From assembly GCF_045037415.1 (NCBI RefSeq), contig NZ_CP173438.1: DNA of 64,000 bases. The stretch is one strand, 5' to 3'. The position numbers and the translations under genes are program-made. Below are positions 57,063 to 57,158 of this stretch, one piece after another; within the stretch, counting starts at the first letter, position 1, and each line of letters begins with the position of its first letter. The DNA is from Escherichia coli (GTDB lineage Bacteria > Pseudomonadota > Gammaproteobacteria > Enterobacterales > Enterobacteriaceae). Under the pieces are notes generated by a model. That model was not told the DNA's origin. It was given only the letters and a program-made list of their open reading frames with translations, and made no database searches.

Positions 57063-57158
57063 ACCCTATTAACTGTAATATTTGAGCGGCACGTGCTGCC
57101 GCTCACGCTCAAATAATTAAAATAAGCCGTTGTAAATAAAAACCCTACAGGAGGCACT

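Follow-up and report, generated by a model that had tools for sequence, protein, structure and literature searches.

The intergenic region between yphG and yphF of Escherichia coli contains a stable and conserved stem-loop (57083-57105), which we consider, at about even odds (a probability near 0.5), to be a barrier to mRNA decay. Positioned between two cistrons, it would stall 3′-to-5′ exonucleases and separate the mRNA of yphG from that of yphFEDCB. The functional unit would be the inner of two overlapping palindromes, predicted to form in vivo in the sense-strand yphG-yphF mRNA. The element is real and conserved but otherwise an ordinary intercistronic hairpin.

Gene context and structure of the hairpin

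The window, which is the whole stretch of 64,000 nucleotides of E. coli DNA that was analysed, is best matched in the 1 kb around the hairpin by strain SK1144 (100% identity) and by the B2 strain E2348/69 (99.3%); most other strains are at about 95%. The gene yphG, which ends with the stop codon TAA (57060-57062), codes for a cytoplasmic DUF5107 protein, and the gene for the binding protein, yphF, lies downstream with its start codon ATG at 57159. It is followed by yphE, yphD, yphC and yphB. According to the annotation of SK1144, the spacing within yphF-E-D-C-B is 2-32 nt, and the 96 nt between yphG and yphF are the sole long gap of the operon. The gene yphH, which codes for a ROK-family regulator, is located upstream of yphG in divergent orientation. 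By its position in the SK1144 annotation, the stable hairpin is found on the sense strand between co-oriented genes of one operon. A sequence scan of the yphG-yphF gap found no sigma-70-like promoter for yphF. A conserved CCCTACA block was considered as a -10 element in the yphF-type loci and was rejected, because TACAGG directly overlaps the Shine-Dalgarno sequence. The features of the region are the following.

53781-57062, plus strand: yphG coding sequence (DUF5107 and TPR repeats), as annotated in RefSeq for strain SK1144, which is 100% identical; Pfam DUF5107, E = 5.8e-56
57079-57088, plus strand: 5′ arm of the outer palindrome, TATTTGAGCG (10 nt), from the repeat search; lineage-specific, sharing six bases (57083-57088) with the inner 5′ arm
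57083-57091, plus strand: 5′ arm of the inner stem, TGAGCGGCA, from the repeat search and folding; invariant in the E. coli sampled, with GAGCGGC kept in loci L010-L014
57092-57096, plus strand: inner loop CGTGC, in which T at 57094 creates CACGTG (57090-57095); polymorphic in E. coli, unrelated in other species
57097-57105, plus strand: 3′ arm of the inner stem, TGCCGCTCA, from the repeat search, folding and cross-species comparison
57106-57115, plus strand: 3′ arm of the outer palindrome, CGCTCAAATA (10 nt), from the repeat search; CGCTC (57106-57110) stands against TCACA in K-12 and O157
57142-57148, plus strand: candidate Spot 42 site ACCCTAC, a perfect complement of Spot 42 nt 1-7; adjoins the yphF Shine-Dalgarno sequence AGGAGG, at -17 to -11 from the ATG
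57149-57154, plus strand: yphF Shine-Dalgarno sequence AGGAGG, read off the sequence 4 nt 5′ of the ATG; kept in L010-L013
57159-58142, plus strand: coding sequence of yphF, the periplasmic sugar-binding component of an ABC transporter, from the SK1144 annotation; Pfam Peripla_BP_4, E = 2.5e-33

The inner stem has 9 bp, 6 of which are G-C, a loop of 5 nt and a folding energy of -15.9 kcal/mol. It begins 20 nt past the stop codon of yphG and ends 53 nt before the ATG of yphF. A preliminary description of this DNA had reported nested palindromes with a CACGTG core. All bases quoted there are present, but the palindromes are not nested. The hexamer CGCTCA occurs in tandem on the 3′ side (57100-57105 and 57106-57111), while GAGCG (57084-57088) is the 5′ arm shared by both palindromes. 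As both folds need this one segment, they are mutually exclusive rather than concentric. The arms are also slightly longer than first listed: the inner palindrome has 9 bp, one more than had been given, and the outer arms, first quoted with 9 nt (ATTTGAGCG, 57080-57088, and CGCTCAAAT, 57106-57114), extend to 10 nt in the repeat search. The distances to the neighbouring genes had been given as 18 nt after the yphG stop and about 50 nt before yphF, which is close to the 17 nt and 44 nt that were measured. With -14.2 kcal/mol as opposed to -15.9 kcal/mol, the outer fold has an equilibrium share of about 13%, and the inner fold should also be favoured kinetically, its 3′ arm being transcribed first.

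Folding had been proposed as a check, and the structure withstands it: a 43-nt segment reaches -15.9 kcal/mol compared with -7.8 ± 2.25 kcal/mol for shuffled sequences (z = -3.6), and none of 200 shuffles is as stable. The inner hairpin persists when it is folded in a context of 106 nt and also in a cofold with Spot 42. A long-range CUGUA/UACAG pairing that appeared in the 106-nt fold was rejected, as the pairing bases are not kept in the related loci L012 or L014.

A perfect 9-bp stem-loop is unremarkable by itself, with about 1.9 matches expected per 64-kb window in Markov simulations. Perfect stem-loops of at least 9 bp are enriched in the window, with 22 matches at 10 sites. It is conservation, and not the 9-bp stem alone, which argues for more than chance. 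The nine other sites are at 5290, 10760, 20773, 21548, 22382, 32323, 45476, 49602 and 52430, and the last of these (52430-52453) coincides with a strong glyA-side 3′ end in published Term-seq data.

The hairpin resembles intrinsic terminators in its GC-rich 9-bp stem, its short loop and its location just after a stop codon. It differs from them in lacking a U tract and in having the start of a co-oriented gene 53 nt further on. The tail that follows the stem is CGCTCAAATAATT, with no T run on either strand, and a scan for the terminator consensus calls the site on neither strand. The preliminary description had been right in noting that a T run is missing and that this is not a canonical terminator. 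A scan of 56000-58500 against Rfam 15 (E ≤ 10) gave only sub-threshold hits, the best one overlapping the hairpin having 20.5 bits (threshold 88 bits, E = 0.85).

Some further observations were made around this junction. The only terminator-like site called nearby is a hairpin GGCATTATTCACCACCGTGATGCC followed by TTTTATTTTT at 57014-57047; it is located in the final 50 nt of the reading frame of yphG, its T run encodes Phe-Ile-Phe, and it is probably a chance match and was treated as such. An exact 8-nt direct repeat, AAACCCTA, flanks the intergenic region (57061-57068 and 57140-57147), the first copy overlapping the yphG stop codon. It is probably fortuitous, as E. albertii does not retain this first copy. 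Codons 3-5 of yphF contain a run of seven A (57165-57171) which has only six in ATCC 25922 (L093), so that the beginning of yphF is polymorphic in the length of a homopolymer. With six A, a stop is encountered in the annotated start frame, and the annotated yphF start shifts to the next ATG, four codons shorter. In the lineage of the window, yphA is directly followed by hcaT (L001, 12155-13001), while hcaR-hcaEFCBD is found between these genes in K-12 (L090). The phenylpropionate dioxygenase cluster thus appears to be absent beside the operon in the B2-type strain.

Variation within E. coli and among related species

The element occurs once per genome. With a 39-nt query (E ≤ 10), a single copy was found in 5410 of the 5426 complete genomes of E. 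coli, and there is one match within the window when up to 3 mismatches are allowed. With one copy per genome and in the window, and a sequence unrelated to REP, an assignment to REP/BIME, MITE or other dispersed repeats was rejected.

The 18 stem positions are unchanged in the alignment of nine strains and in the additional variants sampled, all substitutions being confined to the loop and the flanks. Conserved structure had been named by the preliminary description as a point to check, and the stem is kept both here and in four other species (see below). The features which that description had placed in the foreground are not those that are conserved. The loop is CGCGC in most strains, CGTGC in the lineage of the window and TGCGC in FMU073332. 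CACGTG rests on a single SNP in the loop, which is present in about 10% of the genomes, and was rejected as a conserved protein site. About 570 of the 5410 genomes match the window exactly at 57078-57116. The enclosing palindrome, which competes with the inner stem, is also restricted in its distribution, as its 3′ arm CGCTC is found in about 1580 of the 5410 genomes (29%, counted as genomes in which the full 39 nt align), including CFT073, ATCC 25922 and IMT16316.

K-12, BL21, O157 and most other strains have TCACA in place of CGCTC, i.e. five consecutive differences without a change in length (57106-57110 of the window, 367-371 of L002). The corresponding bases are TTGCC in E. albertii and TCACT in a divergent E. 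coli (L010), and therefore CGCTC is the derived state. The change to CGCTC yields both the tandem CGCTCA repeat and the perfect 10-nt outer palindrome. As the five changes turn the flank into the exact reverse complement of 57084-57088, this looks, most simply, like one short template-switch event, anchored on a pre-existing TATTT/AAATA inverted repeat; a non-exhaustive look at the alleles found no intermediates between TCACA and CGCTC. Both the outer palindrome and the CACGTG core arose recently in the lineage of the window, and neither is needed for the function proposed here.

Two independent insertions of IS1 were found within the palindrome, one in TUM1881 (L009, 3045/3046) and one in 2018-05-5CC (L092, about 85/86), which correspond to positions after 57084 and after 57102 of the window. 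In TUM1881, hcaD directly follows IS1 and yphFEDCBA has been deleted. Possibly, IS1 inserts preferentially in the region of the palindrome.

A search for YphG in species-representative genomes (one scan) gave 80 loci. The GAGCGGC/GCCGCTC stem is kept in the four closest orthologues outside E. coli that have yphF downstream (E. albertii, Enterobacter sp. BIGb0383, RIT691 and Enterobacter sp. R1), while the flanks have diverged and are largely unalignable. The loops are of the type GCGTACT in E. albertii, CTGACC in BIGb0383, GTTCTCT in RIT691 and AAGCGC in Enterobacter sp. R1; the spacer between the half-sites is 5 to 6 nt and varies in sequence across the species that keep the stem. Across the close relatives, a count of pairs gives 98.6% pairing, and seven of the nine pairs show no variation. 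Four sequences have A-U as the apical pair, two have G-U and one has C-G, so that pairing is maintained throughout. The two G-U pairs work only in sense-strand RNA and are a weak hint on the strand. Covariation is weak, as 61 of 500 shuffles score as well, and with one compensatory change a sequence-level constraint on the DNA may remain compatible with the data.

In Aeromonas, Cedecea, Hafnia, Citrobacter and Photobacterium, a GC-rich hairpin of unrelated sequence is found at the same place after the yphG homologue. Seventeen gammaproteobacterial intergenic regions downstream of a yphG homologue had a sufficient length for testing. Of these, 15 hold a hairpin (p ≤ 0.05 against dinucleotide shuffles), and a proper U tract is absent from all hairpins of distant homologues that were tested. 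The hairpin is present irrespective of whether the next gene codes for a binding protein, an MFS sugar porter or an aldose 1-epimerase. As the next gene varies, the hairpin goes with the 3′ end of yphG, and it is its shape and not its sequence that recurs. The presence of unrelated hairpins at one position favours a role at the level of RNA. Of the suggestions made in the preliminary description, it is the RNA processing or stability element that the comparative data favour, both by the retained stem and by the hairpins of distant loci.

A chance or relic palindrome, which persists merely through the close kinship of E. coli strains, would not require any function. This would agree with the roughly two perfect 9-bp stem-loops per 64 kb that arise by chance and with a covariation that is not significant. 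We consider it quite improbable, as the stem survives in species in which the surrounding intergenic sequence can hardly be aligned, as hairpins recur at the same position in most of the loci tested, and as the substitutions in E. coli hit the loop and the flanks but none of the stem positions.

Proposed function of the stem-loop

The decay barrier would operate as follows. An endonuclease would cut in the yphFEDCB part of the transcript, or transcription would end downstream in a Rho-dependent manner. Exonucleases acting in 3′-to-5′ direction would then shorten the message until the base of the stem halts them, so that 3′ ends would accumulate there and a stable message with only yphG would remain. 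Perhaps the hairpin also causes pausing or weak attenuation. The outcome would be a changed ratio of the two mRNAs, with the expression of yphG set apart from the tightly packed transporter and enzyme genes.

Since the 1980s, intercistronic hairpins have been known to set unequal levels of mRNA for the genes of one operon. With a stem that is 20 nt beyond the stop codon and 53 nt ahead of the next start codon, the footprints of terminating and initiating ribosomes should not reach it. Because of the latter distance, the ribosome-binding site of yphF is not occluded. According to PMC8577784 (its refs 49-52), stem-loops at the 3′ end block the 3′-to-5′ exonucleases of E. coli, and intercistronic stem-loops act as decay terminators such that the upstream cistron outlives the downstream one.

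The yph hairpin is similar to the stem-loops of this class, such as the puf hairpin of Rhodobacter and the REP hairpins between malE and malF, in being a GC-rich intercistronic hairpin on the sense strand, without a U tract and just past the upstream stop codon. What is expected for the class is a stalled exonuclease and a raised level of the upstream cistron (for the principle, see PMC8577784). In contrast to malE-malF, the yph hairpin is a single-copy, non-REP element, and the gene for the binding protein is located downstream, which is the reverse of the order in malE-malF.

The Term-seq tables of PMC7815308 contain no 3′ ends in yphG or yphF, while those of the glyA terminator are present. 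This blank probably reflects that the operon is silent in the media used, and it speaks neither for nor against a barrier. A point against it is that the hairpins of the distant homologues could be independent weak terminators and not the same kind of element.

The hairpin could instead act in termination. As a decayed or weak intrinsic terminator or attenuator, it would stop some of the RNA polymerase after yphG and lower yphFEDCB at the source. In RIT691 and Enterobacter sp. BIGb0383, short U runs come after the same stem (GCCGCTCA-GTTTTCG and GGCCGCTC-CGTTTCA, respectively), and the hairpin of Hafnia is followed by ATTTCT (GGTGGCCT-ATTTCT). This suggests descent from an ancestral weak terminator, the U tract of which has been lost in Escherichia. 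However, the tails in Escherichia (CGCTCAAATAA, TCACAAAATAA or TTGCCAAATAA) have no U tract, the terminator scan is silent at the site, and the strict retention of the stem in E. coli would need some other reason. For the present-day element we regard termination as unlikely.

An AU-rich single-stranded stretch, UAAUAUUU (57076-57083), directly precedes the stem. If the transcript were cut within it, the hairpin would be on the yphF side of the cut and could guard the new 5′ end of a processed yphFEDCB mRNA from 5′-end-dependent RNase E. The hairpin at the 5′ end of ompA is a known precedent for such a protection. However, a hairpin still follows the yphG homologue in loci with a different downstream gene, or with one that is only 46-48 nt away, as is the epimerase gene in Citrobacter (L022 and L027). 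From its presence at these loci, it follows that the hairpin is tied to yphG rather than to a transporter gene. A 5′ stabiliser of the transporter mRNA is therefore considered to have a rather small chance of being correct.

The preliminary description had also considered a protein-binding site. In this case, a dimeric protein such as YphH would recognise the half-sites GAGCGGC and GCCGCTC in the DNA. The stem sequence is indeed invariant from E. coli to the Enterobacter species while the flanks change, and the operator of YphH is not defined in the literature (PMC4288165), so that there is no motif by which to exclude it. Nevertheless, nothing similar was found in the yphH-yphG promoter region (53670-53780), where an autoregulatory operator would be expected, and the scan found no promoter-like site nearby that could be controlled. 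In addition, the spacer changes both in length and in sequence, the CACGTG core is not conserved, and distant homologues carry hairpins of unrelated sequence at the same position. With no related site in the promoter region and no fixed spacing of the half-sites, a YphH operator is not supported, and of all alternatives a DNA-level site fares worst, being highly improbable.

Complementarity to Spot 42 upstream of yphF

The decay barrier may be only one part of the arrangement at this junction. Spot 42 starts with GUAGGGUACAGAGG, as checked against the spf gene of K-12, and the leader of yphF contains the perfect complement of its first seven nucleotides next to the Shine-Dalgarno sequence. A block C(C/U)(C/U)UACA(A/G) recurs upstream of the transporter gene, both in loci of the yphF type and in those of the sugar-porter type, and is absent where an epimerase gene follows. 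The changes of this block across genera are from C to U, with G-U pairing retained. In several loci the match extends inward, namely in Cedecea sulfonylureivorans (CCUCUGUAUCUCUAC), in Citrobacter werkmanii and in both Budvicia species.

Over 12 loci, which represent several genera, the duplex energies with Spot 42 nt 1-16 add up to -198.2 kcal/mol compared with -113.4 ± 14.6 kcal/mol for permuted 16-mers, none of 1000 being as good in this post hoc comparison. Nucleotides 8-16 alone, which are outside the core block, give p of about 0.02 (likewise post hoc). When whole leaders were paired with Spot 42 nt 1-62, duplex energies were no better than those of target shuffles, so that only the test focused on the 5′ 16 nt is informative. 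When the E. coli leader is cofolded with Spot 42 in full length, ACCCUAC pairs with nt 1-7, which are in a single-stranded region of the sRNA, with a gain of 9.3 kcal/mol, and the yphG hairpin is left intact.

CsrA has the consensus RUACARGGAUGU. A CsrA site was rejected as an explanation of the block, as it fits only where the block adjoins the Shine-Dalgarno sequence; in Aeromonas and Cedecea, the block is more than 20 nt upstream and there is no GGA.

Region I of Spot 42 (5′-GUAGGG) has been functionally validated at the galT-galK junction, where a stable galET mRNA with only the upstream genes results from RNase E cleavage and Rho termination (PMC8577784). In Vibrionaceae, Photobacterium among them, spf is conserved together with its 5′ end (PMC3295665). 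In the literature searched, no link between Spot 42 and any yph gene was found. The two junctions have in common that they separate cistrons of a sugar operon and that a complement to region I (5′-GUAGGG...) is located near the downstream start, with 8 nt in gal and 7 nt in yph. [quoted passage not shown] Also, the protected 3′ end in gal is formed by the duplex of sRNA and mRNA, while yph has a separate hairpin upstream.

On this basis we tentatively suggest, as a reading that is still doubtful, that the yphG/yphF junction may be a conserved two-part module for uncoupling, which consists of the hairpin that caps yphG and a Spot 42 region-I site (57142-57148) at the ribosome-binding site of the transporter gene. 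In the presence of glucose, when Spot 42 is abundant, translation of yphF would be blocked, followed by cleavage or by Rho termination in the manner of galT-galK, and owing to the hairpin a stable mRNA with only yphG would remain. The same logic would hold in Aeromonas, Cedecea, Hafnia, Citrobacter and Photobacterium, where an MFS sugar porter replaces the ABC transporter and the complementarity to nt 1-16 is kept.

Taken alone, the hairpin is of little import, as such elements are long known and this one is located in an uncharacterised, normally silent sugar operon. For those who study yphG (DUF5107) or the YphFED transporter, it has the practical consequence that two expression modules should be expected, yphG on the one hand and yphFEDCB on the other, and that strains of the B2 type carry a different, two-state version of the hairpin element. 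If confirmed, the possible involvement of Spot 42 would place the orphan yph operon under catabolite repression, and the junction would represent an unrecognised, widely conserved target of Spot 42 and a second natural case of discoordinate operon expression driven by an sRNA.
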